From NCBI GenBank assembly GCA_963717255.1, contig CAVQVT010000014.1:8751-72750 (forward strand): 64,000 nucleotides of DNA, written 5' to 3'. How positions within the stretch are numbered: position 1 is the first letter of the stretch; every line of letters begins with the position of its first letter. Source of the DNA: an uncultured Chloroflexia bacterium. Its GTDB lineage: Bacteria; Chloroflexota; Limnocylindria; Limnocylindrales; CSP1-4. Of the stretch, positions 1,614-48,878 are shown piece after piece. Made by a program: the position numbers and the translations under genes. The notes beneath the pieces are model-generated. The model was not told the origin of the DNA. It saw nothing but the letters and a program-made list of their open reading frames with translations, and ran no database searches.

Positions 1614-3334
1614 GCGGCCGCGGCCGCTCTCTCCGGTCCCCGCTCGACGTCTGGCTCGCCCGGCGCCACCGCGGTCACGGCCCGCCCCGGCAGCTTCCGC
1701 GTGAACCAGAACGCCAGGATCGCGAAGAGCGCCGCCGCACCGAGCGCGTTGCGGAGCCCGTCGAGCAGCGCGTCGCCGTAGTCGGCGGCCACCACGCTCG
1801 CGTCGGCTGCCGGCAGGCCCGCCTCGACGAGGAGCGACTCCGCCTGCTCGACGGTCACCACCGGGAGCGGCTTCGACTCGGCCGCCTGGGTGAGCGCCGC
1901 CTGGACGTCCGCCGGGATCGCCGGGTTCGTCTCGATCCGGTCCACGAACCCGTTCGTGAGGCCGATGAGCAGGATCGAGCCGATGAGCGCGGTGCCGAGG
2001 GACGCGCCGAGGTTCTGCGCCGTGCCCTGGAGCCCGCCCGCCTCGTTCGTCTGCGCCGGGGCGACGGACGACATGATCACGTTGCCCAGCTGTGACGCGA
2101 GGAGGCCGGCCCCGACGCCGTAGACGGCGAGACCGAACGCGAACCCGAGCGAGTTGAGCTCGACGTCAATCGTCGCGAGCAGGATCAGCGCCCCGGCCGA
2201 GAGGGCCGCCAGGCCGGCCTGCGCGACGCGCTTCGGCGAACGCTTCGCGGCCGCCCGCGGCCCGGCGAGCGCCGCGACGAGCATCATCGCGGACATCGGG
2301 ATGAGCCGCTTCCCGGTCTCGAACGCGTCGAGGCCCAGGACGACCTGCAGGTAGACGGGCAGGACGAAGAAGGTCCCGAGCAGGACGAGCTGCTGCATGC
2401 CGAGCGTCATCAGGCCGGCCCTGAGCGTCTCGATCCTGAGCATCGCGAGGTCGAGCAGCGCGTCGAGACCCAGTCGCCGCCGTCGCTCCTCCCACGCCAC
2501 GAAGGCCCAGAGCAGGCCCAGCCCGGCGAGGATGAGGAACGGCACGACCGAGAAGCCGAGCGGCGTGATCTCCTGCCCGCCGATCGTCGGCGCCGCGAGC
2601 GGCTGCACCCAGCCCCAGGTGCTGCTCATGAGGATCGCGAAGACGATCAGGCCCAGGCCCGAGGCGGAGAAGGCCGCACCGACCACGTCGAGCTGCGGCG
2701 TCCGGGCCGGCTTCGGGCTGGGCCGCATCCGCTTCCGGAAGAGGAGGATGACCGCCACGATGACGACCTCGCCGATGAAGACGAGGCGCCACGTGAAGGT
2801 GGTCGTCACCCAGCCGCCGATGAGCGGTCCGGCGGCGACCGCCGCGGCCGCGACGCCGCCGATGATCCCGTACGCGAGGGCCCGCTGCTTCCCCTCGTAG
2901 TTCGCCGCGATGAGCGCCGCGATGGCAGGCACGACCAGGACGGCGCCCAGCCCCTCGACGAGCGACCAGCCGAAGAGGAGGACGGCCAGGTTGGGGCTGA
3001 TCGCCGTGATCGCCGACCCGGTCGCGTAGACGACCAGGCCGATGGCGAAGGTCCGGTCGCGTCCCCAGATGTCGCCCAGCTTGGCGCCGACGAGCATGAA
3101 CGCCGCCATCACGAGCGTGTACAGCGTGATCGCCGTCTGCACCCCCTGCACGGTCGTGCCCAGGTCGGCGCAGATCTGGGAGATCGAGACGTTCATCACG
3201 CTGCTGTCGAGCACCATGACGAACTGGGCGGAGGCCAGGATGGCCACCGCTACCCACGATGCGGTGCGTGCCGACGGCGCGGCGGCTGCGCCGCCGGTCC
3301 CCGCGGGTTCGGAGGTCGCGGGCGTGTCGCTCAT
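1610..3334 (-). CDS. MFS transporter, DHA2 (EmrB/QacA-like, 14-TMS type) drug/proton antiporter family
   Basis: 574-aa ORF with many hydrophobic helices. The N-terminal MFS signature region is MVLDSSVMNVSI..LGDIWGRDRTF..GLGAVLVVPAIAALI. The stop codon lies inside the IS right inverted repeat. Confidence 0.85.
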   Translation of the reverse strand: MSDTPATSEPAGTGGAAAAPSARTASWVAVAILASAQFVMVLDSSVMNVSISQICADLGTTVQGVQTAITLYTLVMAAFMLVGAKLGDIWGRDRTFAIGLVVYATGSAITAISPNLAVLLFGWSLVEGLGAVLVVPAIAALIAANYEGKQRALAYGIIGGVAAAAVAAGPLIGGWVTTTFTWRLVFIGEVVIVAVILLFRKRMRPSPKPARTPQLDVVGAAFSASGLGLIVFAILMSSTWGWVQPLAAPTIGGQEITPLGFSVVPFLILAGLGLLWAFVAWEERRRRLGLDALLDLAMLRIETLRAGLMTLGMQQLVLLGTFFVLPVYLQVVLGLDAFETGKRLIPMSAMMLVAALAGPRAAAKRSPKRVAQAGLAALSAGALILLATIDVELNSLGFAFGLAVYGVGAGLLASQLGNVIMSSVAPAQTNEAGGLQGTAQNLGASLGTALIGSILLIGLTNGFVDRIETNPAIPADVQAALTQAAESKPLPVVTVEQAESLLVEAGLPAADASVVAADYGDALLDGLRNALGAAALFAILAFWFTRKLPGRAVTAVAPGEPDVERGPERAAAAA

Positions 3335-10463: not shown

Positions 10464-11768
10464 ATGACAGACACCGCGGCCGTGGCCAGCGCCGCCACGC
10501 TGCGCGTCGGCGAGGTCGAGCTGGAGTTGCCGCTCGAGCACGCGTCGGTGGGTCACCCCGTCTTCAACGTCGGGGCGCTCCTGGCGAAGGGCGGCATCAC
10601 GACGCTCGACTACGGGTTCGCGAACACGGCCGCGACGCGCAGCGCGATCACGTACATCGACGGCGACAACGGGATCCTGCGCTACCGCGGCTACCCGATC
10701 GAGCAGCTCGCGGAGCAGTCCACCTTCCTCGAGACGGCATACCTGCTCGTCTACGGCGAGCTGCCGACGGCCGACCAGCTGGCGGCCTGGGAGTCGGCGA
10801 TCACCCACCACACGCTGATCGACGAGGACTTCCGGCGCTTCTTCGAGGGCTTCCCGCGGAAGGCGCATCCGATGGGCGTGCTCGGGTCGGCGGTGATGGC
10901 GCTCTCGACCTTCTACCCCGATTCGATCGACCCATTCGACCCCGATGACGTGGAGATCAGCACGATCCGCGTGCTCGCGAAGCTCCCGACGATCGCGGCG
11001 GCCGCTCACAAGCACTCCATCGGCCAGCCGTTCGTGTACCCGGACAACGCGCTCGACTACGAGAGCAACTTCCTCCGGATGATGTTCGCGGTCCCCACGG
11101 AGCCGTATCACGTGGACCCCGAGGTCGCCGCCGCGATGCGCGTCCTCCTCATCCTCCACGCGGACCACGAGCAGAACTGCTCCACGTCCACGGTCCGCTT
11201 CGTCGGCTCCAGCCACGCGAACCTGTACGCCTCGGTGTCGGCGGGCGTCTCCGCCCTCTGGGGCCCACTCCACGGCGGCGCCAACCAGGAGGTCCTGGAG
11301 ATGCTCCGCGCGGTCCAGGCCGACGGAGGGGACGTGGGCAAGGCGGTCGCCCGGGCGAAGGACAAGGACGACCCGTTCCGCCTGATGGGCTTCGGGCACC
11401 GCGTGTACAAGAACTACGACCCGCGGGCGAAGATCATCAAGCGGGCAGCGGACACGATCCTCAACAAGGCCGGGCAGCACGACCCGCTCCTCGACATCGC
11501 CATGCAGCTCGAGGACGCCGCGCTCACAGATCCGTACTTCATCGAGAGGAAGCTCTACCCGAACGTCGACTTCTACAGCGGCCTCATCTACCACGCGCTC
11601 GGTTTCCCGGTCGAGATGTTCACTGTCCTCTTCGCGATCGGACGCGCACCCGGCTGGGTCTCCCATTGGCGCGAGATGATCCGCGACAAGGACACGAAGA
11701 TCGGGCGGCCGCGGCAGCTCTACACGGGCGTCGTCGAGCGCCCGTACGTGCCGATCGACCAGCGCTGA
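10464..11768 (+). CDS. gltA: citrate synthase (type II)
   Basis: 434 aa. Motifs LHADHEQNCSTSTVR, GPLHGGANQEV and GFGHRVYKNYDPRA. RBS AAGGGAG lies upstream of the ATG. Confidence 0.95.
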   Translation: MTDTAAVASAATLRVGEVELELPLEHASVGHPVFNVGALLAKGGITTLDYGFANTAATRSAITYIDGDNGILRYRGYPIEQLAEQSTFLETAYLLVYGELPTADQLAAWESAITHHTLIDEDFRRFFEGFPRKAHPMGVLGSAVMALSTFYPDSIDPFDPDDVEISTIRVLAKLPTIAAAAHKHSIGQPFVYPDNALDYESNFLRMMFAVPTEPYHVDPEVAAAMRVLLILHADHEQNCSTSTVRFVGSSHANLYASVSAGVSALWGPLHGGANQEVLEMLRAVQADGGDVGKAVARAKDKDDPFRLMGFGHRVYKNYDPRAKIIKRAADTILNKAGQHDPLLDIAMQLEDAALTDPYFIERKLYPNVDFYSGLIYHALGFPVEMFTVLFAIGRAPGWVSHWREMIRDKDTKIGRPRQLYTGVVERPYVPIDQR

Positions 11769-11819: not shown

Positions 11820-13607
11820 CTAGGGCGCCGGCGTCCCCGCCGGCCGCTGGCGGGCGAACGCGCCGACGATCGGGTCCGCGACGCCGAGCTCCGCGAGGTC
11901 CGACCCGTCCGGCCGAACCGTCGCGAGCGTCATCGTGCCGGCGCCCCGGTGGGCAAGGCTGAAGAGGATCGCCGATCCGTCCGGTGACCAGGCCGGCCAG
12001 AAGGCTGCGCCGTCGACGCTCTCGAGGTCCGTGAGGCACGTGAGCCCGCTGCCGTCGGGGCGGATCGCGTAGAGCTCGGATGTCGGATGCTGCGGGTCGA
12101 ACGGGTCCAGCGCTCCGGCCGAGAAGACGATGAGGTCCTCGGTCGGATGCCACGCGGCGCTCCCCGCGTACATCTCCGGGTCCACGAGCCGGCGCACCGT
12201 CGGAGGTGACGAAGCCAGGTCGACGACCGCAAGCGAGGTGCCGCGGATCTCGGGCGCAGCCGCGGTCGTCCCGGCAGAGACCGTCGCATCGATCACGACG
12301 AGGCGCCGACCGTCGCCCGACCACCGCGGCAGAGCGAGGATCCGGGGCGGTCGGCTCTCGAGCACGGTCGAGACCGTTTCGCTCGCGACGTCGAGCGTCC
12401 GGAGGCTGGATCCGGCGAGCGAGTCGCCGGCGACGTCGAGGCGCCAGAAGGCGATCGACCGGCCGTCCGGCGACCAGGCAGGGCCTCCCACCTCGGTGCA
12501 GGGAGGCGCACAGTCGACGAGGCGCGTGACGTCGGTCCCGTCCCAGTCGGCGGCCCACAGGTCCCTGGTGCCGTCGGCGTCGACGCCGATGAATGCGTAG
12601 CGCTCCCCGTCGGGAGACCAGTCGACCTCGCCGGACACCTCCTCCGGACCGCCGGCCAGCGCGGGCTCGACCTCGTCGGTGCCCGGCCGGAGGCGCCAGA
12701 GCTGTCGCTCGTCGTACCGGAAGAAGAGGACCCACGGGACGGCCGCGTCAGGGGCACGGGTCGGCGCCGGGGAACCCGGCGCCATCGACGACGCGGCCCC
12801 CGACGGCGGCGCCAGGTCGCAGTCGGGCGTCGTGCAGAGCTCGAGCCCGAGCGCGGCGAACCCCTCCGCGAGCGGCGTGAACGCCATCCGCCCGCCGAGG
12901 CTGCGGCTCACGATCCCTGCCGGCTTCCCGTCCACGAACACTGGCCCACCCGAGTCGCCGACGCGGGCCCGGGTGTCCGTGAGGACGAGGCACGGGAAGT
13001 GGTCGCCGTCACCATCCACCAGGTGCGGCGCCACGTCCAGGACGGTCCCGCGCCGGTAGCCGAGCACGCCGGTCGCCTCCATCGGGTCGCCGGGCTCGAT
13101 GTCCGCGCACGCGAGCGGCCGCGTGCCCGCGAGGCTCCGGATCCCCGATCGGCCCATCCGGACCGTGTCCAGCAGGCCCCAGGGGATCCGGTCCGGTGCC
13201 AGGACGACATAGGTCATGTCCGAGGCGAGGCACCGGCGGTCCGGCGCATCGCACGGGTCGATCAGCGCGAGCGGTCCCCAGGTGCCGAGGTGCCGGCCGC
13301 GTGCGTCGGTGACCGCGGCGCCCTCCACGCCGTGGCAGTGGGCCACGGCCACGAGGACGACCTTGTCCCCGTGGCGCGCGTAGACGTTCCCGAAGCACGG
13401 GTACGCGATCTGGTGTCCGGCCATGATCGCGTCGTCCGCGTACCCGGCCGACATGGGCGGGAGGAAGCGCAGGAGGACGATCGCGAGGAGGCAGGCGAGG
13501 GCGGCCACCAGCGTCCACGTGAGCGTCCGCACGACCTCCCGGCGCTCCGACGGAGCCGGGCCCGCCGGGTCCGCGCAGGGCGGCTCGGAGGACCTGCGTG
13601 CGTCCAT
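11820..13607 (-). CDS. membrane-anchored chymotrypsin-like (S1) serine protease fused to a TolB-like PD40 beta-propeller
   Basis: N-terminal TM helix. Catalytic triad context AVAHCHG / DMTYVVL / GDSGGPVF. Repeated PD40-type blades are present: WSPDGERYAF, PAWSPDGRSIAF, WSGDGRRLVV, AAWHPTEDLIVF, PAWSPDGSAILF. Confidence 0.75.
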   Translation of the reverse strand: MDARRSSEPPCADPAGPAPSERREVVRTLTWTLVAALACLLAIVLLRFLPPMSAGYADDAIMAGHQIAYPCFGNVYARHGDKVVLVAVAHCHGVEGAAVTDARGRHLGTWGPLALIDPCDAPDRRCLASDMTYVVLAPDRIPWGLLDTVRMGRSGIRSLAGTRPLACADIEPGDPMEATGVLGYRRGTVLDVAPHLVDGDGDHFPCLVLTDTRARVGDSGGPVFVDGKPAGIVSRSLGGRMAFTPLAEGFAALGLELCTTPDCDLAPPSGAASSMAPGSPAPTRAPDAAVPWVLFFRYDERQLWRLRPGTDEVEPALAGGPEEVSGEVDWSPDGERYAFIGVDADGTRDLWAADWDGTDVTRLVDCAPPCTEVGGPAWSPDGRSIAFWRLDVAGDSLAGSSLRTLDVASETVSTVLESRPPRILALPRWSGDGRRLVVIDATVSAGTTAAAPEIRGTSLAVVDLASSPPTVRRLVDPEMYAGSAAWHPTEDLIVFSAGALDPFDPQHPTSELYAIRPDGSGLTCLTDLESVDGAAFWPAWSPDGSAILFSLAHRGAGTMTLATVRPDGSDLAELGVADPIVGAFARQRPAGTPAP

Positions 13608-13616
13608 CGCGGCCGT

Positions 13617-14288
13617 TCAGCCGGCCCCGGCCGGCCGCGACGCGCCGAGGATCAGCGCGGGGAGGACCGCCCGCGCCATCGCATCCGGGTCGTCCCCTCC
13701 CGAGAGCAGCGTCCGCCGGATGCTGCGCTCGACGATGGCGACCGCGGCGTCCGCGACGTCGGTCGCGTCCGCCGTGAGCTCGCGGCCGAGCTGGGCGATC
13801 CCGTGCTCGATGAACTGCACGATCCGCGCCCGGAACCGGTCGTCCGCCTCGAGGAACGGGCGCGACGAGGACGGCTGGCGCACGGCATGGATCTCCATCT
13901 CCGTCTGGACGAGCGAGAGGAACCGGTCGCCGGGGACCGACGCGAGGATCCGCTCCACGATCCCGCCGAGGACCCCGGCCGGGTCCGCGGCCACTCCGGC
14001 CGCCTCGGCCAGCGCCCCCGGCTCGTCACCGAAGAGGTCCAGGTTCGCGTCGAGGTAGGCGAGGAGACGCGCGTGCTCGCGCTCGATCAGCGCCTGGAGC
14101 ACGTCCTCCTTGTCCGCGAAGTTCGAGTAGAAGGCGCCGCGCGTGAACCCCGCCTGCTCGCAGATCTCCTCGACGGTGCCGCCGAAGACGCCTCGCTCCG
14201 CGAAGACGACCAGCGCGGCGTCCAGCACGCGCTCGCGGGTCGCGTCACGACGCGCCGAGCGGATCGGCTCCCTCGCCTCCACGCTCAC
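13617..14288 (-). CDS. TetR/AcrR family transcriptional regulator (GTG start at 14288 preferred over the annotated 14381)
   Basis: HTH region RERVLDAALVVFAERGVFGGTVEEICEQAGFTRGAFYSNFADKEDV. Divergent from the MMPL gene. Confidence 0.85.
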   Translation of the reverse strand: MSVEAREPIRSARRDATRERVLDAALVVFAERGVFGGTVEEICEQAGFTRGAFYSNFADKEDVLQALIEREHARLLAYLDANLDLFGDEPGALAEAAGVAADPAGVLGGIVERILASVPGDRFLSLVQTEMEIHAVRQPSSSRPFLEADDRFRARIVQFIEHGIAQLGRELTADATDVADAAVAIVERSIRRTLLSGGDDPDAMARAVLPALILGASRPAGAG

Positions 14289-30793: not shown

Positions 30794-30944
30794 CCCTGGG
30801 CCAGACTCCCTGATCCGCCTCGCCGGCGGCCCGCCGCGGACCCGGCGTCCTCACGGTCGGCCGCGTCGATACCGTGCATCGCGAGTGGGGAGATCGTCTC
30901 ACCGCCACGAGGCTGCGGCGCCACTGACCCACAAGGCGGCTGAA

Positions 30945-31083
30945 CGCCGCAGCAGGCACGAACCGGAAGTGGAGCGGGAGCCGGGTCTCGAACCCGCGAC
31001 ATTCAGCCTGGAAGGCCGGGGCGGCTATGGGTTACAGCATGGTGCTCGGGGGCCCGAGCGAGACGTGTCCAGTCATCGTGTCT
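30945..31083 (-). repeat. junction module R1 (orphan tRNA-Gly 3' half at 30970-31015 plus conserved arms); most tRNA-distal copy
   Basis: The core differs from the tRNA at 2 positions. The right arm is GGCGGCTATGGGTTACAGCATGGTGCTCGGGGGCCCGAGCGAGACGTGTCCAGTCATCGTGTC. The left arm is the most diverged of all copies. Confidence 0.85.
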
Positions 31084-31199
31084 CCGCCAAGAGGTCCCCG
31101 AGCCCGATCCGCTGGGGGGTCACGATGACGGCGGTCGCCGTTGCCGCCCGCCGGCCGTCCTCTGGTCATTCGACGATCGTCCCGTCCGGCCGGATGCCG

Positions 31200-33745: not shown

Positions 33746-34420
33746 CTAGGCCTGGACGAGCTGTCCGTCGACCATCTCCACCTTGTGTCTGGCCTTCGCG
33801 GCCAGGGCCGGGCTGTGCGTGACGTAGATGACCGTCTTGCCCTGCCTGTTGAGCTCGTCGAACAGCTCGAACATGGCGGCCTCGGTCCTGGAATCGAGGT
33901 TGCCGGTGGGTTCGTCTCCGATGAGCACCTTAGGCTCGTTGACGAGCGCCCTGGCGATCGCGACACGCTGTTGCTGGCCGCCGGAGAGCTCCGAGGGGAG
34001 GTTGTCGACCTTGTCGCCGAGCCCCACGAGCTCCAGTCGCTCGCGGGCGCGCTTCTTGCGCTCAGCGACACTCCCGCGCCTGAGGAAGTCCATGGGCAGC
34101 ATGACGTTCTCGAGCGCGGTGAGTGTCGGGAAGAGCTGGAAGAACTGGAAGACGATGCCGACGTTGGCGCCCCGCCAGGCGGCGAGCTTGTCTTCCTTCA
34201 TCTGGTCGATGCGATCCCCGGCGATCGTGACGCTGCCGCCGGTGGGCCGGTCGATGCCGGTGATCATGTTGAGCATCGTCGACTTGCCCGACCCGGACGG
34301 TCCGACGATGGCCACGAGTTGGCCTTCTTGGATGTCGAGATCGACGCCCTTGAGAGCCTCGAACTCGAGCTTGCCGGTCTTGTACGTCTTCCTGAGATCG
34401 CGAAGCTGGATGAGCGACAT
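33746..34420 (-). CDS. ABC transporter ATP-binding protein (MacB/LolD-type)
   Basis: GPSGSGKST, IVFQFFQLFPTLTALENV, LSGGQQQRVAIARAL, LIGDEPTGNLD, YVTH. Confidence 0.9.
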   Translation of the reverse strand: MSLIQLRDLRKTYKTGKLEFEALKGVDLDIQEGQLVAIVGPSGSGKSTMLNMITGIDRPTGGSVTIAGDRIDQMKEDKLAAWRGANVGIVFQFFQLFPTLTALENVMLPMDFLRRGSVAERKKRARERLELVGLGDKVDNLPSELSGGQQQRVAIARALVNEPKVLIGDEPTGNLDSRTEAAMFELFDELNRQGKTVIYVTHSPALAAKARHKVEMVDGQLVQA

Positions 34421-34850
34421 GGAACAGCTCCCTCCGCTCCAGTCCCGCCGTCATCCCAGCGCCCGGGAGTGCGGGTCGGTCTCGCCCGCGGCTCAGCGCG
34501 GTCCCGGCGGCCGGGGCATGGGCCGCGTGTCCAAGCCCCCCGCTGCGGCCGATGCTGGTTCCGGACAGACACGCTCGCCAGAGCCGGAGGTCGCCTTGAT
34601 CAGTGAAGCCGCGGTCGGCGCGAGCGGCGCCTGAACACGATCGGGCCCGGGCGGGACGGCGGTGGATGGAAACGAGCCCGCCGCGTGCTTCATCGACCGC
34701 CGCCGGGTAGCTGTGCGCGCCGAGATCCACGTCGGCGGCGATCACGCGGCTTCGCGACACGGAAGCTGGTCGCGGCTGAGCGCTGTGGCGGTGAACACGG
34801 GCGCTCAGGGGACCGCAGAAGGCCGAGTGGGTGTCTCGCACCACAGGCTG

Positions 34851-35003
34851 CGTGTCGCCCGGAGCACGGAACCGGGGAAGTGGAGCGGGAGACGGGTCTC
34901 GAACCCGCGACATTCAGCGTGGAAGGCCGGGACGGCTACGCGTTACAGCATCGTGCTCGGGGGCCCGAGCGAAACGTGTCCAGTCATCGTGTCGTCACGG
35001 GGG
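34851..35003 (-). repeat. junction module R2 (orphan tRNA-Gly 3' half at 34881-34926 plus conserved arms)
   Basis: The core has 1 mismatch. Left arm CGTGTCGCCCGGAGCACGGAACC. Right arm ..CATCGTGCTCGGGGGCCCGAGCGAAACGTGTCCAGTCATCGTGTCGTCACGGGGG, followed by an 11-nt tandem duplication (34993-35003 / 35004-35014). Confidence 0.85.
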
Positions 35004-38000
35004 CGTCACGGGGGCCAGCTTGGGCGCGGCGGAGTTGCCAGTCCGGTCCGATGAAGGAGCGAGAGCAGCGTCGAGCCGGGCGATGAACGGCGCGGCCTCC
35101 AGCCGGACGAGGATCTCGCGTGCGGCCTTCGCGGCGGCCCGCACCTCCGGACCGGCCGGCTCGAGCAGCGTCGCCATGGTGATCCCGGTGAGCGACTCGC
35201 GCCAGGGCGCGCCGAGGTCGCGCCATCCTGCGAGCGCCTCCCGGAAAGCCGACAGCGCGTCGCCCGCACGCCCGTCGAGGGCCGCCAGCCCGGCCCGGAT
35301 CGTCCGGCGGTCGATATCGACGACCCTGCCGTGTACTCCGGTCGCGTCCAGGGCGGCGAGCGCGGCGGCCGCCCGCTCGCGGTTGCGCTCCCAGAGGGCG
35401 CAGATGGCGGCGTAGAAGAAGATGTAGCTCGCCTCTGCCGGGCGAATGTGCCCGTACGCCATCGCCGCGTCGCAGGCATCGGAGAGCCGGCCCGACCCGA
35501 AGGCGACCCAGAAGCGCAGCTCGGGGATCGTTTCGCGCGCCACCGTGGCGTCCGCGGCACCGAAGTACCGCTCCAGCCAGCCCGCCTCCTCGGCCGGGTC
35601 TTCCCCACGCAGGGAGTTGATCATCAGACGACTGTAGGTCAGATGCGCCTGCTCGACGTCCTCCGGCGCCGTCTCCATGGCGGCCGCGCACTCGCCCAGG
35701 GCCCAAGCCCAGTCTCCCGATTCCACGGCAGCCTGTGTCGCGTTCACCATGGTGTGGGCGTATCCGGCGCGATCACCGAGCCGCGCCGCCAGCGCGAGCG
35801 CGGCCCGGGCGGCGTCGAACGAACCCCGGAGGTCGGAGTCGATCAGTCTGAAGCTGAGGCTGCCCAGGCCGGTCACGGTGACCTGCGTGAGCCCATTCGC
35901 CTGGGCAAGGTCGATCCCCGCCCTGACCGCGCCGACCCCTTCGTAGGAGCGGCCGAGATTGCACAGGGCGGAACCGCGAGTGACCAGCGTGTCGGCCACG
36001 AGCGCCACGAGGTCGCCCCGCTCGGCCGCGGCCAGAGCGCGGTCGGCGACCTCGATCCCCCGTTGATGCTGCTCGCCGACCATGAGCGCTCGTGCGAGCT
36101 GGCTGTCGAGGGCGACGGCTCCGGGGTCCCCGGCCAGGTCGGCGAACTCCGTGGCGGCGGGCTCGAGGATCGCCAGCGCGCGGTCGTCACGCAGACCGCG
36201 GCCGAGCGCGCGACCGAGCTCCGCGGTCGCGCGGGCGGTCGCCGGGCGGTCACCGAGCCCGCGATAGGTGTCCGTCGCCCGCACGAGGTAGCGCTCCGCC
36301 GCGTCGTGGTCGGCGGCCATGGAAGCCGAATGGCCGGCACGCTCGAGGAGGAGGGCCTGCTCCGCCGGGTCGGTCGTCACGCTGAGCGCATGCTCGAGGA
36401 ACGCGACGGCCTGCGCATGGGAGCCCAGGCCCGCGGCGCGCTCGGCAGCCGCCCGCAGGGCGATGCGCGCCTGGGCGGCGACGTCGTCGGACTCCGCTCC
36501 GCCGGGGGCGTTGCGGTAGGCGGCGACGTAGTGACCGGCAAGTGCGCCGGCGAGCTCGTCGGTCCCGAGCACCTCGAAGTAGCGGGCGGCCGCGAGGTGG
36601 CGGACCTTCCGGTCGCGCTTCGCGAGCGTGTTGTACGCGACCTCGCGGACCAGCGACTGGACGAAGGCATACTGACCGCGCTCCGGGGAGCGGGGGTTGC
36701 CCTCGACCGCGAGGAGCTCGCGCCGCACGAGGGAGAGGAGGCGGGGCTCGAGCTCGGGCTGTGGGATGCCGGACACGGCCGCCAGGGCGTCACGGGTGAA
36801 GCTCTGGCCGAGGACGGCGGCATCGGAGAGGAGGGCCCGGTCGGCCGGCTCGAGACCATCGAGACGGGAAGCGATGAGCGCGGTGAGCGTCTCAGGGACG
36901 GCCAGGGTCGCGAGATCGTGGATCGGCCGGTAGACGTCACCATCGAGGGTGAGCCTGCCCTGGGCGAGGAGCATGCGGACCGTCTCGACCGCATAGAGGG
37001 GCACCCCGTCGGCGCGTTCGACGATCGCCAGGACCGCCGCCTCGGGGAGCCCCGGCACGAGCCCCGCCAGGAGCTCGCGCATGACCGCCGCCGGGAGCGG
37101 CTCGAGGAAGATCGAGGTGAAGCTCCGCTTGCCCGCGCCCCAGGCGGGGAGCTCCTCGAGGAGCTCGGGCCGGGCGAGGGTGAGGACGAAGATGGGGAAC
37201 GAGCGGCTCCACTCGAGGAGGGCGTCGATGAAGTCGAGGAGCCCCGGGTCGGCCCACTGGATGTCCTCGAAGACCATCACGACCGTGCCAGTCGCGGAGA
37301 GCCGCTCGAAGAACGTCCGCCAGGCCGCGAAGAGCTGCTCGGGGTCGACCGCATCAGTGTCGATCCCGAGGAGCGCGAGGAGAGCCGGCTCGATCCAGCG
37401 GCGCTCGGCCACGTCGGGGACGTGCTCGGCGACCGTCCCTGCGACCTTCGCCCGCGTCGTGCGCTCGTCGTCGGTCCCGACGAGGCCGGCCCGTGCGCGA
37501 ACCATCTCGCCGAGCGCCCAGAACGTGATCCCCTCGCCGTACGCGGGGCTGCGGCCCTCGTGCCACCAGATCGGCTCGACGAGCCCGTCGAGGTACTTCT
37601 CGAACTCCCAGGCCAGGCGGGTCTTGCCGATCCCGCCGATTCCGGTGATCGAAACGAGCCTGGCCCGCTGCTCCCGGCCCGTCGCGTGGTAGAGGTCCTT
37701 GAGCAGGCGCAGCTCGTCCTCGCGGCCGACGAAGGGGGCCTCGAGCGTCTCCGACCGGTTGCGGCCGCCCCGTTCCGCGACAACGCGAAGGGCTCGCCAG
37801 GCCTGGACCGGGGCGGTCTTGCCCCTGAGGGTCAGCTCGCCGGCCTCCACGAACACGATCGCCCGGCTCGCGGCACGTTGGGTCGCCTCGCCGACGAGGA
37901 CCGTGCCCGGGGCAGCGGCCGACTGCAGCCGGCTCGCCGTGTTCACGAGGTCGCCGGCGACGATCCCCTGGCCGACGGCCCCGAGGGTGACGGCGGCCTC

Positions 38001-38492: not shown

Positions 38493-38633
38493 CGGGCACT
38501 CCGATGCGACGTATGGGACCGAGCGTACCGCAGGAAACCCGTCACGGACAGGGGTTCCGCCACCGTGAGCCTCTTGGCATACGGTCGGGATGCGCCCTCT
38601 GGGTGGTCCAGAAGGCCGCCCGCACGGGGAGCA

Positions 38634-38781
38634 TGTCGACTCGAGCACGAAGCTGGGAACTGGAGCGGGAGACGGGTCTCGAACCCGCGACATTCAGCTT
38701 GGAAGGCCTCGGCGGCTATGCGTAACAGCACCGTGCTCAAGGGCCCGAGCGAAACGTGTCCAGTTATCGTGTCGTCGCGGG
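38634..38781 (-). repeat. junction module R3 (orphan tRNA-Gly 3' half at 38661-38706 plus conserved arms)
   Basis: The core is identical to the tRNA 3' part. Arms are TGTCGACTCGAGCACGAAGC / ..CACCGTGCTCAAGGGCCCGAGCGAAACGTGTCCAGTTATCGTGTCGTCGCGGG. Confidence 0.85.
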
Positions 38782-38818
38782 TGCCGATTCGCGCATACCG
38801 ACCGCTTCTCGGCCGGGT

Positions 38819-39793: not shown

Positions 39794-40023
39794 CGGGGTT
39801 TGGCTCCGTCCTCGAGGATGCGTCCTGAGGACCGGAGCATGCCACGCGGGGGGAGGCGGCACCAGCGGGGGACCGCGGCGGTCGCTCGTGCCCGAACGAG
39901 CGTGGCGTCGTAGACGTCGCTGCCAGGTCTGGGTCACTGAGCGTTGTAGCGGCGAACGCAGGCGCTGTCGAGGGCCGCGGCAGGCCCTATGAGTGTCCGG
40001 CGGTCGCAGGCTGCGTGTCGCCC

Positions 40024-40175
40024 TGAGCACCAACCGAGGAAGTGGAGCGGCAGACGGGTCTCGAACCCGCGACATTCAGCTTGGAAGGCCGGGACGCCTG
40101 AGCGTTGTGGCACCGTGCTCAGGGGCCCGAGCGTAACGTGTCCAGTTATCGTGTCGTCACGGGGGCGGTCCAGTG
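40024..40175 (-). repeat. junction module R4 (orphan tRNA-Gly 3' half at 40053-40098 plus conserved arms)
   Basis: The core has 1 mismatch. Left arm CGTGTCGCCCTGAGCACCAACC (shares a further ~12 nt, CAGGCTGCGTGT, with R2). Right arm ..CACCGTGCTCAGGGGCCCGAGCGTAACGTGTCCAGTTATCGTGTCGTCACGGGGG. Confidence 0.85.
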
Positions 40176-42693: not shown

Positions 42694-42781
42694 GCGGCCG
42701 GACGTTCCCACCCACCCGGGGAGTCATGACAAGGAGGGTCAACTTCCTGGACCCGTGACCTCCAGGACTCTGGGTGCCGGG

Positions 42782-42935
42782 CGTGTCGTGCTGAGCACGA
42801 AACCGAGGGCTGGAGCGGGAGACGGGTCTCGAACCCGCGACATTCAGCTTGGAAGGCCTCGGCGACTATGCGTCACAGCATCGTGCTCAGGAGCCCGAGC
42901 TTAGGCGTGTCCAGTTATCGTGTCGTCGTGGGGGG
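42782..42935 (-). repeat. junction module R5 (orphan tRNA-Gly 3' half at 42811-42856 plus conserved arms)
   Basis: The core is identical to the tRNA. Left arm CGTGTCGTGCTGAGCACGAAACC. Right arm ..CATCGTGCTCAGGAGCCCGAGCTTAGGCGTGTCCAGTTATCGTGTCGTCGTGGGGGG. Confidence 0.85.
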
Positions 42936-43158
42936 CGTGTGAGCCCTGGTCGCGGTCGATCGCGATGACCATGGTCGCCGAGGCGCTACCGCCCCACCGG
43001 CCCGCCTGACGGCTCGCGGCTCGACCTTCATGCCGAACGCCTCTGGCGGGCCCGGGCACGCCCTGCTGGAGTGATCTCAGGCGACTGGGCCGCCACCAGC
43101 GGTCCGTTCCAACCCTGCCATCGGTGGCTCGGCCCCCCGGCACAAGCGGCGGCAGATC

Positions 43159-43845
43159 GTGAACGCGAAGCCAAGTGTCGCGTCCCTCCTCCTCGGGTTC
43201 GTCCTCGCAGCGTGCGCGAGCACTTCCACGACCCAGGCGCCGGCGGCCGCGCTCGCCACCTCGATGGCCACGCCCACCGCCTCGCCCGAGCTGACCGAAC
43301 CCCCGACACCAACGCCGAAACCCACAACCACGGCGACTCCGGTTGTCGGGCCGACAGCGACACCGAATCCGACGCCAACGCCGAAACCCGTGGCGGGCTG
43401 GCCCTCCGTCAGCCGGGCGGGGATCACCATGGCCGGCGCCGTCGAAGACTCCGCTGGGACGGACGGTCGCCTCCGACTCTCGATCACCGTGGCCGGGCTT
43501 GCGCCGGGCGAAGTCGTCTCACTCAGTGCCGCGGGGAGGTACGACATCCTCGAATGGATCTGCGGGACCGCGCCCGAGCCGTGCGGCGACCTCGGGTGTG
43601 GGCCCGGCACCTACCGCGAGACGGAGGGGACAGCCACGGCCGCCGCTCAGGCGGTCGCCGGTACCGACGGCACGGTCGCCGCCCGGGTCTCGCTCGTCGC
43701 CGCACCCCCTGCCGAGTCCTGCCCCACGGACACCAGTTCGCCGTGGGTGGCGAAGCACGAACGATGGGAGAAGGTGAGCATCGCGGACTCCGCCCATGGC
43801 CTCCTCCTGACCCCAGAGACGATCGAGCGGGGCTTCACCTACTGA
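43159..43845 (+). CDS. hypothetical lipoprotein, copy 1 of 3 (Pro/Thr-rich linker plus Cys-containing C-terminal domain)
   Basis: GTG start. Lipobox LGFVLAAC. Linker ..TEPPTPTPKPTTTATPVVGPTATPNPTPTPKP... The domain has 5 Cys (WICGTAPEPCGDLGCGPG..ESCPTD). No family was recognised. Confidence 0.7.
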   Translation: MNAKPSVASLLLGFVLAACASTSTTQAPAAALATSMATPTASPELTEPPTPTPKPTTTATPVVGPTATPNPTPTPKPVAGWPSVSRAGITMAGAVEDSAGTDGRLRLSITVAGLAPGEVVSLSAAGRYDILEWICGTAPEPCGDLGCGPGTYRETEGTATAAAQAVAGTDGTVAARVSLVAAPPAESCPTDTSSPWVAKHERWEKVSIADSAHGLLLTPETIERGFTY

Positions 43846-43892
43846 CGCGGCCTCGCACCGGGCGTGGCACCGCGGCGTGGCACCGGGGAGCG

Positions 43893-43949
43893 GGACGGGA
43901 CGGGCACTGGGCCATCCGGGCGTTCGTCGCGAACGCATCTGTCCCGTCC
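43893..43949 (+). terminator. nested GC-rich hairpin downstream of the lipoprotein gene (no U-tract); repeated in each cassette copy
   Basis: The outer stem is GGACGGGAC (43893-43901) / GTCCCGTCC (43941-43949). It encloses the hairpin GCGTTCG-tcg-CGAACGC (43920-43936). The same structure occurs at 46359-46415. Confidence 0.3.
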
Positions 43950-44015
43950 GCCAGCGCTACAGCACTCAATTCGGCCGCATCACCCGCTCGTCGAGATAGC
44001 CGGCCGTCCGGCTAC

Positions 44016-44168
44016 CGTGTCGTCCTGAGCACGAAACCGGGCTCTGGAGCGGGAAACGGTCTCGAACCCGCGACATTCAGCTTGGAAGGCCTCGGCGACT
44101 ATGCGTCACAGCATCGTGCTCAGGAGCCCGAGCTTAGCGTGTCCAGTTATCGTGTCGTCGTGGGGGGC
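44016..44168 (-). repeat. junction module R6 (orphan tRNA-Gly 3' half at 44046-44090 plus conserved arms)
   Basis: The core has 1 substitution and a 1-nt deletion (GGGAAACGGTCTC). The arms are as in R5/R7. Confidence 0.85.
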
Positions 44169-44388
44169 GTGTGGAGCCCTGGTCGCGGTCGATCGCGATG
44201 ACCATGGTCGCCGAGGCGCTACCGCCCCACCGGCCCGCCTGACGGCTCGCGGCTCGACCTTCATGCCGAACGCCTCTGGCGGGCCCGGGCACGCCTGCTG
44301 GAGTGATCTCAGGCGACCGGGCCGCCACCAGCGGTCCGTTCAACCCTCCATCGGTGGCTCGGCCCCCCGGCACAAGCGGCGGCAGATC

Positions 44389-45076
44389 GTGAACGCGAAG
44401 CCAAGTGTCGCGTCCCTCCTCCTCGGGTTCGTCCTCGCAGCGTGCGCGAGCACTTCCACGACCCAGGCGCCGGCGGCCGCGCTCGCCACCTCGATGGCCA
44501 CGCCCACCGCCTCGCCCGAGCTGACCGAACCCCCGACACCAACGCCGAAACCCACAACCACGGCGACTCCGGTTATCGGGCCGACGGCGACACCGAATCC
44601 GACGCCAACGCCGAAACCCGTGGCGGGCTGGCCCTCCGTCAGCCGGGCGGGGATCACCATGGCCGGCGCCGTCGAAGACTCCGCTGGGACGGACGGTCGC
44701 CTCCGACTCTCGATCACCGTGGCCGGGCTTGCGCGGGCGAAGTCGATCTCACTCAGTGCCGCGGGGAGGTACGACATCCTCGAATGGATCTGCGGGACCG
44801 CGCCGAGCCGTGCGGCGACCTCGGGTGTGTGGCCAGGCACCTACCGCGAGACGGAGGGGACAGCCACGGCGGCCGCTCAGGCGGTCGCCGGTACCGACGG
44901 CACGGTCGCCGCCCGGGTCTCGCTCGTCGCCGCACCCCCTGCCGAGTCCTGCCCCACGGACCCCAGTTCGCCGTGGGTGGCGAAGCACGAACGATGGGAG
45001 AAGGTGGAGCATCGCGGACTCCGCCCATGGCCTCCTCCTGACCCCAGAGACGATCGAGCGGGGCTTCACCTACTGA
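44389..45076 (+). pseudogene. lipoprotein copy 2 of 3, disrupted by several indels
   Basis: Same gene as 43159..43845. Two deletion/insertion pairs locally scramble the frame and then restore it (GLAPGEVVSLS to GLARAKSISLS; APEPCGDLGCGPG to APSRAATSGVWPG). One uncompensated inserted G (gagaaggtg-g-agc) removes the normal C-terminus. Confidence 0.65.
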
Positions 45077-45245
45077 CGCGGCCTCGCACCGGGCGTGGCA
45101 CCGCGGCGTGGCACCGGGGAGCGGGACGGGACGGGCACTGGGCTATCCGGGCGTTCGTCGCGAACGCATCTGTCCCGTCCGCCAGCGCTACAGCACTCGA
45201 TTCGGCCGCATCACCCGCTCGTCGAGATAGCCGGCCGTCCGGCTA

Positions 45246-45401
45246 CCGTGTCGTCCTGAGCACGAAACCGGGCTCTGGAGCGGGAGACGGGTCTCGAACC
45301 CGCGACATTCAGCTTGGAAGGCCTGGGACGACTGATGCGTCACAGCATCGTGCTCAGGAGCCCGAGCTTAGCGTGTCCAGTTATCGTGTCGTCGTGGGGG
45401 G
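45246..45401 (-). repeat. junction module R7 (orphan tRNA-Gly 3' half at 45276-45321 plus conserved arms)
   Basis: The core is identical to the tRNA. The arms are as in R5/R6. Confidence 0.85.
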
Positions 45402-45624
45402 CGTGTGAGCCCTGGTCGCGGTCGATCGCGATGACCATGGTCGCCGAGGCGCTACCGCCCCACCGGCCCGCCTGATGGCTCGCGGCTCGACCTTCATGCC
45501 GAACGCCTCTGGCGGGCCCGGGCACGCCCTGCTGGAGTGATCTCAGGCGACCGGGCCGCCACCAGCGGTCCGTTCCAACCCTCCCATCGGTGGCTCGGCC
45601 CCCCGGCACAAGCGGCGGCAGATC

Positions 45625-46311
45625 GTGAACGCGAAGCCAAGTGTCGCGTCCCTCCTCCTCGGGTTCGTCCTCGCAGCGTGCGCGAGCACTTCCACGACCC
45701 AGGCGCCGGCGGCCGCGCTCGCCACCTCGATGGCCACGCCCACCGCCTCGCCCGAGCTGACCGAACCCCCGACACCAACGCCGAAACCCACAACCACGGC
45801 GACTCCGGTTGTCGGGCCGACGGCGACACCGAATCCGACGCCAACGCCGAAACCCGTGGCGGGCTGGCCCTCCGTCAGCCGGGCGGGGATCACCATGGCC
45901 GGCGCCGTCGAAGACTCCGCTGGGACGGACGGTCGCCTCCGACTCTCGATCACCGTGGCCGGGCTTGCGCCGGGCGAAGTCGTCTCACTCAGTGCCGCGG
46001 GGAGGTACGACATCCTCGAATGGATCTGCGGGACCGCGCCCGAGCCGTGCGGCGACCTCGGGTGTGGGCCCGGCACCTACCGCGAGACGGAGGGGACAGC
46101 CACGGCCGCCGCTCAGGCGGTCGCCGGTACCGACGGCACGGTCGCCGCCCGGGTCTCGCTCGTCGCCGCACCCCCTGCCGAGTCCTGCCCCACGGACCCC
46201 AGTTCGCCGTGGGTGGCGAAGCACGAACGATGGGAGAAGGTGAGCATCGCGGACTCCGCCCATGGCCTCCTCCTGACCCCAGAGACGATCGAGCGGGGCT
46301 TCACCTACTGA
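45625..46311 (+). CDS. hypothetical lipoprotein, copy 3 of 3
   Basis: Differs from copy 1 by one amino acid (PTDPSS vs PTDTSS) and a few silent or flanking substitutions. Confidence 0.7.
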   Translation: MNAKPSVASLLLGFVLAACASTSTTQAPAAALATSMATPTASPELTEPPTPTPKPTTTATPVVGPTATPNPTPTPKPVAGWPSVSRAGITMAGAVEDSAGTDGRLRLSITVAGLAPGEVVSLSAAGRYDILEWICGTAPEPCGDLGCGPGTYRETEGTATAAAQAVAGTDGTVAARVSLVAAPPAESCPTDPSSPWVAKHERWEKVSIADSAHGLLLTPETIERGFTY

Positions 46312-46512
46312 CGCGGCCTCGCACCGGGCGTGGCACCGCGGCGTGGCACCGGGGAGCGGGACGGGACGGGCACTGGGCCATCCGGGCGTTCGTCGCGAAC
46401 GCATCTGTCCCGTCCGCCAGCGCTACAGCACGCGATTCGGCCGCATCACCCGCTCGTCGAGATAGCCGGCCGTCGCGGCTACCGTGTCGTCCTGAGCACG
46501 AAACCGGGGTGC

Positions 46513-46588
46513 TGGAGCGGGAGACGGGTCTCGAACCCGCGACATTCAGCTTGGAAGGCTGACGCTCTACCGACTGAGCTACTCCCGC
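46513..46588 (-). tRNA. tRNA-Gly, anticodon UCC, CCA encoded
   Basis: Sense strand: GCGGGAG-TA-GCTC-AGTCGGT-AGAGC-G-TCAGC-CTTCCAA-GCTGA-ATGTC-GCGGG-TTCGAGA-CCCGT-CTCCCGC-T-CCA. This gives a 7-bp acceptor stem, standard D, anticodon and T arms, and discriminator U. Confidence 0.93.
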
Positions 46589-46722
46589 CCGTCGCGAGGC
46601 ACCGGCGAGGGTACCACGGGGTGGCCGGGGGACGGGTCGACCAACTCGTCACCGGTGACCGCACGAGGTGAGGCTGGTGTCGGCTGATACCCTGTCGGTC
46701 TCGGGTCCCTGGGAGGACGACC

Positions 46723-48878
46723 ATGGGCGTCGATCGGCGAGCGCACATCCGGGCGGGACACCACGGGGGCCAGCACGGGCCGGCCTTTCGCGGCGCGCCT
46801 GCCGTCGTCGCGCTCGTGGCGGCCGGTGCTCGGCGCCTCCGTCGCCTTCGCTCCGGGTGCCGTCGGCGCCGTGGGTGTCGCGGCAGGTGCGGCGTCCCCG
46901 TCACCCCTCGTCGAGTCGGCCTGGTCGGCCTCCTTCGCCTCCTCCCCCGCGAAGGGCACGGGGACCGTCCGCGTCCTCGACACCGGCGCGGGGTCGGTCG
47001 TGCTCTCCCTCCGCGGGCTGAAGGCGTCGGCGACGTACGCGGTCTCCGTCCGCCGCGGTGCGTGCCCGGCGCCCGGGAAGGTCGTCGCGTCGGTCGGCAC
47101 CGCGAAGGCGACGGGCGGCGGCGCCCTGACCGCCACACGCCCGCTGTCCGTGTCCCAGGCCGCCGCGCTCCGGGCCGCCACTGCGGGCACCGGCCGCGCG
47201 TCGCTCACGGTGACGGGCGCCGGACGGACCGCGTGTGCGACCCTCGCGAAGTCGGCCGCCGTGACCCCGCGGATCTGGTTCGCGCCGCTTCCGCCGATGC
47301 CGCAGCGGCCGGGGCGTATGTACGTGGGCTCCACGGACTTCGCCGCCCTCTTCGCGCCGAACGCGCCGTGGAAGGCGACCGCCGGCCGCACGCACGTGTT
47401 CAAGCTGTACGGCGAATGGCTCGGCGGAACGGCGACCGATGCCGAACTGCGGCGCGTCGTCGCCGCACTGGAGGCACGACAGATCGAGATCGCGATCGAA
47501 GCGGGCCCCCTGATCGCCGGCACCTGCGGCGAGGGCGTCGAGGGGTTCGCCGGTGGATCGGCCGAAGCCCTCCGACTGATCCGGCGCATCGAGGCCGCCG
47601 GGGGACGGGTGCGGTACGTCGCGATGGACGAGCCGTACTTCTTCGCGAGCCTGTACGACGGTCCGAACGCCTGCCGCTGGTCGGTCGAGCAGGTCGCCAC
47701 CGAAGTGGCCCGCTTCGTGCGGGAGGTCCGTGCCGCGCGCCCCTCGGTCGTGGTCGGCGACATCGAGCCGCTCGCGGGAGCGGCGACGGCCCAGCGGTAC
47801 GAGGAGTGGATGGCCGCGTTCCGCGCGGCCACGGGCACGCCGCTCCCGTTCTTCCACCTCGACCTCGACTGGGGGCGGACGGGCTGGCCGGCCGAGACGC
47901 TGCGCCTGCAAGAGTCCGCGCGAGCGCACGGGACACGCTTCGGGATCATCTACAACGGGACCGCCGAGCCGACCGACGCGGCCTGGCTCGGTGCCGCCTG
48001 GGATCACGTGGCGACGCACGAGCTCGACGGCGACGGCCCCCCGGACGACGCGGTCTTCCAGTCGTGGACGGACAAGCCCGACCTCGTCCTGCCGGAGTCG
48101 GGCGAGAACACGTTCACCGGGCTCATCGCGCGATACACGCGGGCGCGGACCGCGATCGACGTGTCGGCCGCGAAGGGCGCGGAGGGCCCGCGGGCGATGG
48201 GGCGGCTCCGGACGCTCGGCGGGTCGCCGGTCGCGGGCGGCCGCGTCGCCGTGTCCGCCACGCCGCTCGACGGCGCGTACCAGGTGCTCGAGGTGACCGG
48301 GACCGTGCCGGCGGGTGCGACGCACGCGGTGGTCGGGATCCGCGTGAACCAGGAGGGTGCCGGTCCGGGCGACGCCGACCTGACGGTCTACGAGGTGGGG
48401 TACGCTGAGGGCGCGGGCGGGCCGAACCTCGTGTCCGACCCGACGTTCGCGCAGGGGCTCGACCGATGGGGCCGGTGGGGCGACGGGAGCCTCGACGACG
48501 CCCGAGAGCGACCGCGGGTCTGGCCGGATGCTCCGGATCGTGGCGCCGGCGGCACGTTCCCTCGGCATCAACTCGGCCGAGTTCGTCGTTACACCCGGCG
48601 CGGCATACCGTGCGTGGATCGCGGTGCGCGTCCCGGCGGCCTCCGCGGACGCCGCCTACGTCGCGCCGATCTTCCTCGCGGTGGACGAGCTGCGCCGCGA
48701 CATCCGGGCGATCGCGCCCGCGCCGGTCCCGCTCGGGACCGTGACGACGGACGCGTCCGGCGGGTTCACGCAGAGCCTCGGCGGGCTCGAGGCCGGCCTC
48801 TACCGCGTGACGGCCGAGTGGCCCGGCGACGCGATGCGGTGGCCCGCGCGGGCGCGGGCGGAGGTGCGCCTCCCCTGA
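46723..48878 (+). pseudogene. hypothetical exported protein (N-terminal beta-rich domain, TIM-barrel-like middle, C-terminal CBM-like domain); appears to need 2 frame corrections
   Basis: GGGAGG lies 7 nt before the ATG at 46723 (signal n-region ..APAVVALVAAG). The protein continues in ORF 46826.. (LGASVAFAPGAVGAVG..) as far as ..FAQGLDRWGRWG. It then continues in ORF 48528..48878 (LRIVAPAARSLGINSAEFVVTPGAAYRAWIAV..). The frame switches near 46820 and near 48500. No family was recognised. Confidence 0.5.

Follow-up and report, generated by a model that had tools for sequence, protein, structure and literature searches.

The 64-kb stretch of DNA analysed here (the window, with coordinates on its plus strand) comes from an uncultured Chloroflexia bacterium and contains, by both ARAGORN and Rfam, a single tRNA, a tRNA-Gly(TCC) whose last 47 nt recur seven times, always in the orientation of the gene itself. 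Each of these orphan copies is the core of a module of ~155 nt, in which it is enclosed by a left arm of 25 nt and a right arm of ~80 nt, and the modules separate gene cassettes from one another. The module has the appearance of a recombination site belonging to a system for collecting cassettes that has not been described before, and the modules are probably P-core-P' junctions of a family of tRNA-integrating units, most of them non-autonomous, with which a tyrosine integrase that we call IntG is associated.

Anatomy and independence of the modules

On the plus strand the left arm follows the pattern cGTGTCGyC-CTGAGCACGA-AACC and the right arm terminates in CGTGTCCAGTTATCGTGTCGTC (Table 1). 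When all eight loci were aligned with MAFFT, the row of the genuine tRNA-Gly(TCC) shared only the left arm and the core with the modules, whilst the interior junctions carry both arms; this is the arrangement that the original prediction had derived from tandem insertion, namely a tRNA end made up of 5' half, core and left arm only and interior junctions with both arms. A repeat search, MAFFT and nhmmer revealed no further copy in the window beyond the seven modules and the tRNA end at 46479-46561.

Module R5, which separates the sulfatase cassette from the first lipoprotein cassette, serves as the reference copy, and the positions previously assigned to its 9-mers, inverted repeat and core were all correct on re-checking. 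The motif layout described for it is likewise present, although the motif has one more direct copy, CGTGTCCAG at the start of the right-arm end, that had been left out. The inverted repeat around the core is perfect in R5, but it is the trait of a subfamily and not of the family as a whole; amongst the independent copies in the window its invariant part is limited to GAGCAC/GTGCTC and the changes are not compensatory. Allowing up to one mismatch, CTGAGCACGA occurs 21 times in the window against an expectation of 6.7, the modules accounting for the excess. An inverted-repeat pair with module-like spacing at 50628/50718 was set aside as a chance occurrence, as it lies in coding sequence and has no nhmmer match to the module.

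The cargo between the modules consists of an FtsX/MacB permease with an ABC ATPase, a 1232-aa adenylate-cyclase/AAA/TPR regulator, an alpha/beta hydrolase, a sulfatase and a 1233-bp unit that encodes a 228-aa lipoprotein-like open reading frame (ORF) and is present in three tandem copies. Cassette genes are found in both orientations and the cargo switches at the module boundaries. For R1 to R5 similarity ends at the module edges (MAFFT) and, because the genes between them are unrelated, these modules are independent of one another; R5, R6 and R7 lie inside the tandem triplication, the copies of which are 99-100% identical, and therefore amount to one observation. It would seem scarcely credible that the modules are plain products of segmental duplication or homologous recombination and not recombination sites. 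The triplication itself could have been yielded by unequal crossing-over between 155-nt modules, yet the unrelated flanking cassettes refute such an origin for R1 to R5, and the module recurs in hundreds of other genomes with different cargo. The original prediction had allowed that the similar flanks might belong to a longer duplicated segment, which holds for R5 to R7 only and fails for R1 to R5. The triplication spans 42858-46512, and its 228-aa ORF is rich in Pro and Thr and has no Pfam match.

The left flank of the outermost module, R1, is a diverged left arm (GCTGA...GCACGAAC) and not unrelated chromosomal sequence, and the array may therefore once have extended beyond R1.

Table 1. Features of the tRNA-Gly(TCC) array and of its reference module R5 (window coordinates)
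Feature	Position	Strand	Remarks
Module R1, outermost	30940-31093	+	Right arm, core with 2 single-nucleotide polymorphisms (SNPs), diverged left arm
Module R2, ABC-transporter cassette / cyclase-STAND cassette	34847-35006	+	
Module R3, cyclase cassette / alpha/beta-hydrolase cassette	38628-38787	+	
Module R4, hydrolase cassette / sulfatase cassette	40010-40169	+	
Module R5 (J5)	42781-42938	+	Left arm / tRNA-Gly 3' core / right arm; nhmmer E 3.8e-51 and alignments
R5: A1, left-arm 9-mer CGTGTCGTG	42782-42790	+	GTGTC here in 50/78 family members
R5: left-arm palindrome TCGTGC-TGA-GCACGA	42786-42800	no strand	Includes the B motif
R5: B motif CTGAGCACGA	42791-42800		Exact reverse complement at 42881-42890
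R5: core, copy of tRNA-Gly(TCC) from anticodon stem to CCA	42811-42857	-	47/47 identical to the gene at 46513-46559
R5: B', TCGTGCTCAG	42881-42890	+	Reverse complement of B; one subfamily only, others carry CCCTCGTGGAG
R5: right-arm end CGTGTCCAGTTATCGTGTCGTC	42906-42927	+	Most conserved non-tRNA part of the family
R5: A2, CGTGTCCAG	42906-42914	+	Third direct motif copy, within right-arm end
R5: AGTTATCG box	42913-42920	+	Within right-arm end
R5: A3, CGTGTCGTC	42919-42927	+	Direct, 8/9 identical to CGTGTCGTG
Module R6, in 1.23-kb triplication	44012-44171	+	Core with 1-nt deletion and one substitution
Module R7, in 1.23-kb triplication	45243-45405	+	
Left arm (P' arm) directly downstream of tRNA	46479-46512	+	attL-type junction without right arm
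Genuine tRNA-Gly(TCC), primary attachment site	46513-46588	-	ARAGORN; Rfam 72.7 bits

A lineage-wide family conserved in sequence

The module is not confined to the window. An exact-pattern scan with GTGTCCAGTYATCGTGTC over species-representative genomes identified at least 117 loci, nearly all of them in Chloroflexota or in metagenome-assembled genomes of Limnocylindrales, and a metagenome scan added 120 more (such related genome, metagenome and viral loci are labelled L### below). A profile search of related genomes had been suggested in the original prediction, and a hidden Markov model built solely from the seven window modules did recover a recurrent family, with at least 198 matches in at least 117 genome loci and 223 in the 120 metagenome loci, so that in total more than 400 module copies are found in at least ~230 Chloroflexota/Limnocylindrales loci. 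By coverage the matches in the genome set comprise full modules, tRNA-end copies with left arm and core, and copies that lack the left arm. The median spacing between modules is 1.6 kb and the cargo is varied, including cyclase-STAND regulators, hydrolases, DUF4386 and RCC1-repeat proteins and methylases. We found no description of this module family in the literature.

An alignment of 78 distinct modules (alignment A2, distinct from the motif of that name) shows what has been conserved. GTGTC stands in direct orientation at three fixed positions, in 50, 64 and 75 of the 78 modules respectively, TCGTG/CACGA motifs are present at 3.2 per module, and GTCCAGTTATCGTGTCG is near-invariant, including in 20 modules that lay outside selection by the search pattern. 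The arms are recognisable across hundreds of loci with unrelated cargo, and an 18-mer within them is almost invariant.

The conserved feature of the modules is their sequence and not a structure. RNAalifold, applied to the 78 modules on either strand, returned a consensus of -7 kcal/mol with no more than the T-arm and a weak anticodon-region stem; the top mutual-information pairs reflect blocks of subfamilies and are not Watson-Crick pairs, and at the module sites Rfam matched tRNA only. The helix between B and B' is 60.7% paired, its inner pairs being unpaired in 40-51 of the 78 sequences, since CCCTCGTGGAG takes the place of CGTGCTCAG in over half of the family, and a structure that contains this helix reaches 70.1% pairing against 69.6% in shuffles. 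Other candidate helices fared no better: a D-arm-like hairpin in the right arm found no support, a CCCTC-GTG-GAGGG palindrome and a GCTC...GAGC hairpin did not exceed shuffles, and neither did the left-arm palindrome TCGTGC-N3-GCACGA, which is 78.8% paired and lacks covariation. It is therefore extremely improbable that the module is a structured tRNA-like RNA, or a site that folds as single-stranded DNA in the manner of an integron attC with the inverted repeat as a long stem. R5 to R7 do possess a perfect 10-nt inverted repeat which the minimum-free-energy fold of the minus strand uses, but single-sequence folding gave z-scores between -0.01 and +1.15, pairing throughout stays at the level of shuffles and the module as such has no match in Rfam. 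The earlier argument that non-compensatory substitutions in the inverted repeat favour protein-binding sites over an RNA stem is upheld by this lack of covariation. In four loci (L008, L096, L065 and L057) a 15-nt hairpin insertion occupies the variable-loop part of the core (columns 68-82 of the alignment), and its variants appear compensatory (GAGCC..GGCTT vs GCGCC..GGCGT).

The arms are also independent of the particular tRNA that supplies the core. The same arms surround the 3' part of tRNA-Arg(TCT) in L036, L113, L006, L048, L071 and other loci, and in L036 the genuine tRNA-Arg(TCT) stands at the end of the Arg-core array. Arms that enclose a core matching the local tRNA are what would be expected of a recombination site, and would not be predicted for a tRNA-derived RNA gene. 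L036 furthermore contains a degenerate Gly-core module within ~70 nt before each of two Arg-core modules (1022-1389 and 2975-3315), which suggests that cassettes have moved between Gly and Arg arrays.

Comparison of related arrays points to where cassettes are gained. L007, L045 and L098 have the cyclase cassette of the window, at 77-83% nucleotide identity, right next to the genuine tRNA-Gly, and the window would therefore have gained five cassettes on the tRNA side; their position between the cyclase cassette and the tRNA fits entry at the tRNA. The lipoprotein cassette has a counterpart with 92-93% identity in L016, a genome in which the cyclase cassette is only 83% identical. In L016 the lipoprotein cassette is seemingly fused to the start of the cyclase cassette.

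Other elements have used the same core. The viral contig L118 represents an insertion precisely into a module of which L107 preserves the uninterrupted form. Similarity resumes at the T-loop, and comparing the occupied with the empty site locates the junction in the interval from the T-loop to the anticodon stem. In L040 and L114 a RepSA-like Rep, a methylase and a frameshifted serine recombinase lie beside a partial core that starts at the variable loop. Bracketed by these junctions, the region of exchange would comprise the variable loop and the anticodon stem-loop. L118 itself is an IMG/VR contig of 8226 bp, satellite-like, with a D5-type primase, a DNA methylase and a small terminase subunit; it was the one match in a motif search of viral contigs, and its primase used as query matched only L118. 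Tandem GTTGCTACCGGC repeats adjoin the partial tRNA-Gly core in L040 (5900-6210) and L114 (5560-5640) and represent a second arm type at the same site.

The last two loci raise the question of whether the cassettes are moved by a serine recombinase instead of a tyrosine integrase, and indeed large serine recombinases drive tandem islands at the tmRNA gene in Dehalococcoides, which also belongs to the Chloroflexota. Besides the Resolvase-domain recombinases of L040 and L114, small resolvases are encoded inside arrays or elements in L037 and L248. We consider a serine recombinase very unlikely, however, as the elements of L040 and L114 bear their own, different arm and have only the core in common with the modules, and serine recombinases occur in few of the ~230 loci and never at a fixed position relative to the canonical arms; regular-expression screens for them matched L037 only. 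Moreover, conservation that extends to ~90 nt on one side is, as a matter of general knowledge, atypical for the att sites of serine integrases.

A candidate integrase and the growth of the array

The enzyme most likely to act on the modules is IntG, a simple Xer-like tyrosine integrase of 290-297 aa which went undetected in a regular-expression screen for tyrosine recombinases and was recovered by tblastn with the integrase from the L132 family. Its Pfam domains are Phage_int_SAM and Phage_integrase only, that is a SAM-like core-binding and a catalytic domain, as in the architecture class of simple recombinases without an arm-binding domain (PMC8138268). In L115 and L174 the gene starts ~80-110 nt from the 3' end of the genuine tRNA-Gly(TCC), on the far side of a canonical left arm, and points away from the tRNA; the arrangement is the same at tRNA-Gly(CCC) in L046, and across these three loci IntG starts ~80-170 nt past the tRNA. 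The IntG sequences lie at 3531-4421 in L115, 2013-2885 in L174 and 1772-2641 in L046, and L115 also encodes a small protein of 261 aa at 2522-3304. Homologues with 58-83% identity take up the same position behind tRNA-Arg(CCG), Arg(TCT), Gly(CCC) and an orphan Arg 3' end. In L237 the final 38 codons of IntG begin 14 nt past a canonical module, and the locus is, to judge from its sequence, an internal deletion derivative giving an integrase-less unit; further IntG fragments are present in L038, L170 and L106. A 3.9-kb unit in L248 (2815-6847), with an IntG homologue and a small resolvase, lies between two full-length tRNA-Arg(TCT) genes, where one gene and one fragment would be usual.

Parts of the module arms recur beside IntG. 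When the intervals between tRNA and integrase were aligned with three left arms of the window (those of the genuine tRNA, R5 and R3), CGACAC, which is GTGTCG read in the tRNA sense, was found ~35 nt after CCA in L174, L115, L237, L245 and L247 as well as in the window arms, R3 having the variant CGACAT. The core of the right-arm 18-mer, GATAACT in the tRNA sense, is met with again in L174, L046, L247 and L249, either at the IntG start or a short way upstream of it.

The mechanism that we propose is as follows. Small circular DNA units would insert repeatedly and site-specifically into the segment of tRNA-Gly(TCC) that runs from the anticodon loop to the 3' end, each unit consisting, in the tRNA sense, of a P arm (the plus-strand right arm, ~80 nt), the core and a P' arm (the left arm, ~25 nt). 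Every insertion would restore the tRNA gene and displace older units outward, and interior junctions should therefore have the P-core-P' form of an attP site, with 5' half, core and P' at the tRNA end. IntG would be supplied in trans to the integrase-less cassettes by those rare members of the family that are autonomous and encode it. The GTGTC copies, TCGTG/CACGA and the AGTTATCG box may be accessory protein sites, taken up by extra recombinase protomers or by a directionality or regulatory factor, and binding of protein is the most likely role of the arm blocks in preference to an RNA or DNA hairpin. The original prediction had gone further and cast the 9-mers as arm-type sites. Short motifs repeated in both arms, far from the presumed crossover, agree with this, but IntG has no arm-binding domain and classical binding of arm sites by the integrase is not to be expected of it; arm-type sites bound by the integrase are thus possible though somewhat doubtful, and the motifs are better called accessory or regulatory sites.

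Several observations weigh against this account. Neither a recombinase gene nor a remnant of one is present in the 64-kb window, including the 17 kb on the tRNA side. Pfam detects no N-terminal arm-binding domain in IntG, and the 83%-identical homologue at tRNA-Arg(CCG) has no AGTTATCG motif within the 12 kb examined. A second integrase family leaves a trace near the modules too: L132 has, 63 bp away from a left arm, the 3' remnant of an integrase of 367-371 aa, so that IntG is to be regarded as a candidate for the cognate enzyme. Of the seven orphan cores, three match the tRNA without a difference, the other four having substitutions or a deletion. The triplication could be due to re-insertion, but unequal crossing-over by homologous exchange between modules would account for it just as well. 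Finally, no excision, circle or empty-site junctions were found in metagenome reads or Logan contigs, the contigs being short fragments with noise-like joints and the reads uninformative.

The 367-371-aa integrases are 76-95% identical across hundreds of Limnocylindrales proteins and accompany a ParB-methylase; they are not put forward as the main enzyme, and in the four contexts read there was no module or tRNA nearby. In L239 the 3' end of the 371-aa gene is duplicated at 80% identity 2.5 kb further downstream (10747-11046 vs 13323-13622), and it looks as if a small cassette had been inserted into the 3' end of the integrase gene.

The altered cores, the want of an integrase in the window and of junction reads, and the decay of integrase genes to remnants in L237, L038, L170 and L106 would all suit modules that arose in the way proposed but are now inert scars, no longer recombining and alike through youth or gene conversion. 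This we hold to be unlikely. The arms and the 18-mer have been kept across hundreds of loci with unrelated cargo, where shared cassettes are only 70-83% identical, and such conservation of arms amid diverged cassettes indicates purifying selection on the arms. Furthermore, the cassette content beside the same tRNA differs among related genomes, and in one genome, L016, two cassettes shared with the window have diverged to unequal extents. The P-core-P' junctions of the window may still be competent for recombination.

A bolder proposal can be offered only tentatively. Chloroflexota of the Limnocylindria type might keep a dedicated tRNA-anchored platform for gene capture, comparable to an integron in its working but not in its construction, in which the tRNA gene (Gly-TCC, or Arg-TCT in a sister set) is the primary site, hundreds of cassettes of one to few genes carry two-armed sites of ~150 bp, an Xer-like recombinase inserts, excises and reshuffles them in trans, and GTGTC and AGTTATCG, as accessory sites, replace the logic of the arm-binding domain of phage integrases.

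Relation to known systems

The family can be classed as a variant of tandem accretion, with arrays like those of cis-mobilisable elements (CIMEs). Tandem accretion and CIMEs are known from the att sites of integrative and conjugative or integrative and mobilisable elements (ICEs and IMEs), such as the relatives of ICESt1/ICESt3 in Streptococcus thermophilus (PMC5704250; Pavlovic 2004 and Bellanger 2011 cited there). The window cassettes are flanked by att-like modules and have neither integration nor transfer genes, which is what defines a CIME. As in CIMEs, units retain att sites in the absence of integration genes, stack in tandem by insertion at the 3' end of the target gene, have attL/attR hybrids as interior junctions and would require the integrase of a related element for mobilisation; the integrase remnant of L237 suggests that units can also originate by deletion. 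They differ from CIMEs in their very small size, with a median of ~1.6 kb and often just one gene to a unit, in their very large number, and in a long two-armed module the sequence of which is conserved lineage-wide and which occurs with two alternative tRNA cores. Genes for conjugation or mobilisation were not observed in the units, and the integrase associated with them is simple and Xer-like, with no arm-binding domain.

Tycheposons and the tRNA-flanked islands of Prochlorococcus (bioRxiv 10.1101/2020.12.28.424599) likewise have tRNA targets and partial tRNA repeats flanking the cargo, older elements are shifted into the island as newer ones arrive, and degenerate remnants and satellite-like relatives occur at the same site (compare L118). 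Tycheposons have by definition their own tyrosine recombinase and replication module, whereas most of the units described here have neither; the host phylum differs, a word search of the preprint gave no mention of arms, and no conserved two-arm module of ~150 nt was found in it.

Integrons, with attI, attC and IntI, and the integrase-less clusters of attC sites known as CALINs (PMC4889954) resemble the family in their arrays of small, mostly single-gene cassettes that lack a recombinase and are each bounded by a conserved site, and in integrons too new cassettes enter at one privileged end. The modules differ in having no folded hairpin of the attC type, their sequence being conserved and their structure not, in a primary site that is a functional tRNA gene and in cargo that lies in both orientations. 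No IntI-type integrase and promoter platform is present beside the array, within 17 kb on the tRNA side or elsewhere in the window.

Xer-dependent modules, such as IMEXs and the pdif modules of Acinetobacter plasmids, are touched on in PMC9771954. They share with the present family integrase-less gene modules that are moved by a simple Xer-type tyrosine recombinase encoded elsewhere. The pdif sites are 28-bp mimics of dif and have neither long arms nor tRNA homology; no dif-like site turned up in our modules, for which no formal dif test was made. Williams reportedly distinguished, in 2002, an anticodon-loop class amongst the islands and prophages whose tyrosine integrases target tRNA genes. 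Islands of this class show the same block of identity, which begins at the anticodon stem-loop and continues as far as the 3' end of the tRNA, the same regeneration of the gene and the same displaced 3' fragment at the far end, but they are single, large and integrase-bearing, in contrast to the multi-unit arrays of integrase-less cassettes reported here.

If active, the system would be a second, independently evolved bacterial route to the collection and shuffling of single-gene cassettes, in a host lineage that is abundant and uncultured in soil, wetland and sediment. A defined site of ~150 bp and a small candidate recombinase make it directly testable and possibly reusable as a tool, and the association of a tyrosine recombinase that has no arm-binding domain with long conserved accessory arms needs explaining. 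Even if they are inert, the modules mark the limits of accessory-gene cassettes in Chloroflexota metagenome bins and explain assembly breaks at these tRNA loci.

Some further features of the window deserve mention. An exact-protein look-up with two of its cassette proteins gave no identical protein on record. On the 5' side of the tRNA, ~2 kb (46600-48500) contain long ORFs on both strands with atypical codon-position GC, and here there was no Pfam match and no convincing gene could be assigned. The first cassette contains a match to the c-di-GMP-II riboswitch (GAG variant) at 34465-34549 on the minus strand, with 49.2 bits against a gathering score of 40, and it lies directly upstream of the ABC-transporter ATPase gene (33746-34420, minus strand). 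Immediately to the right of R5, ~220 bp of the lipoprotein cassette (42935-43152) match L097 (2247-2462) at 81%, a sulfatase homologue following in L097, and this conserved stretch could represent either a leader common to both or a longer form of the arm.

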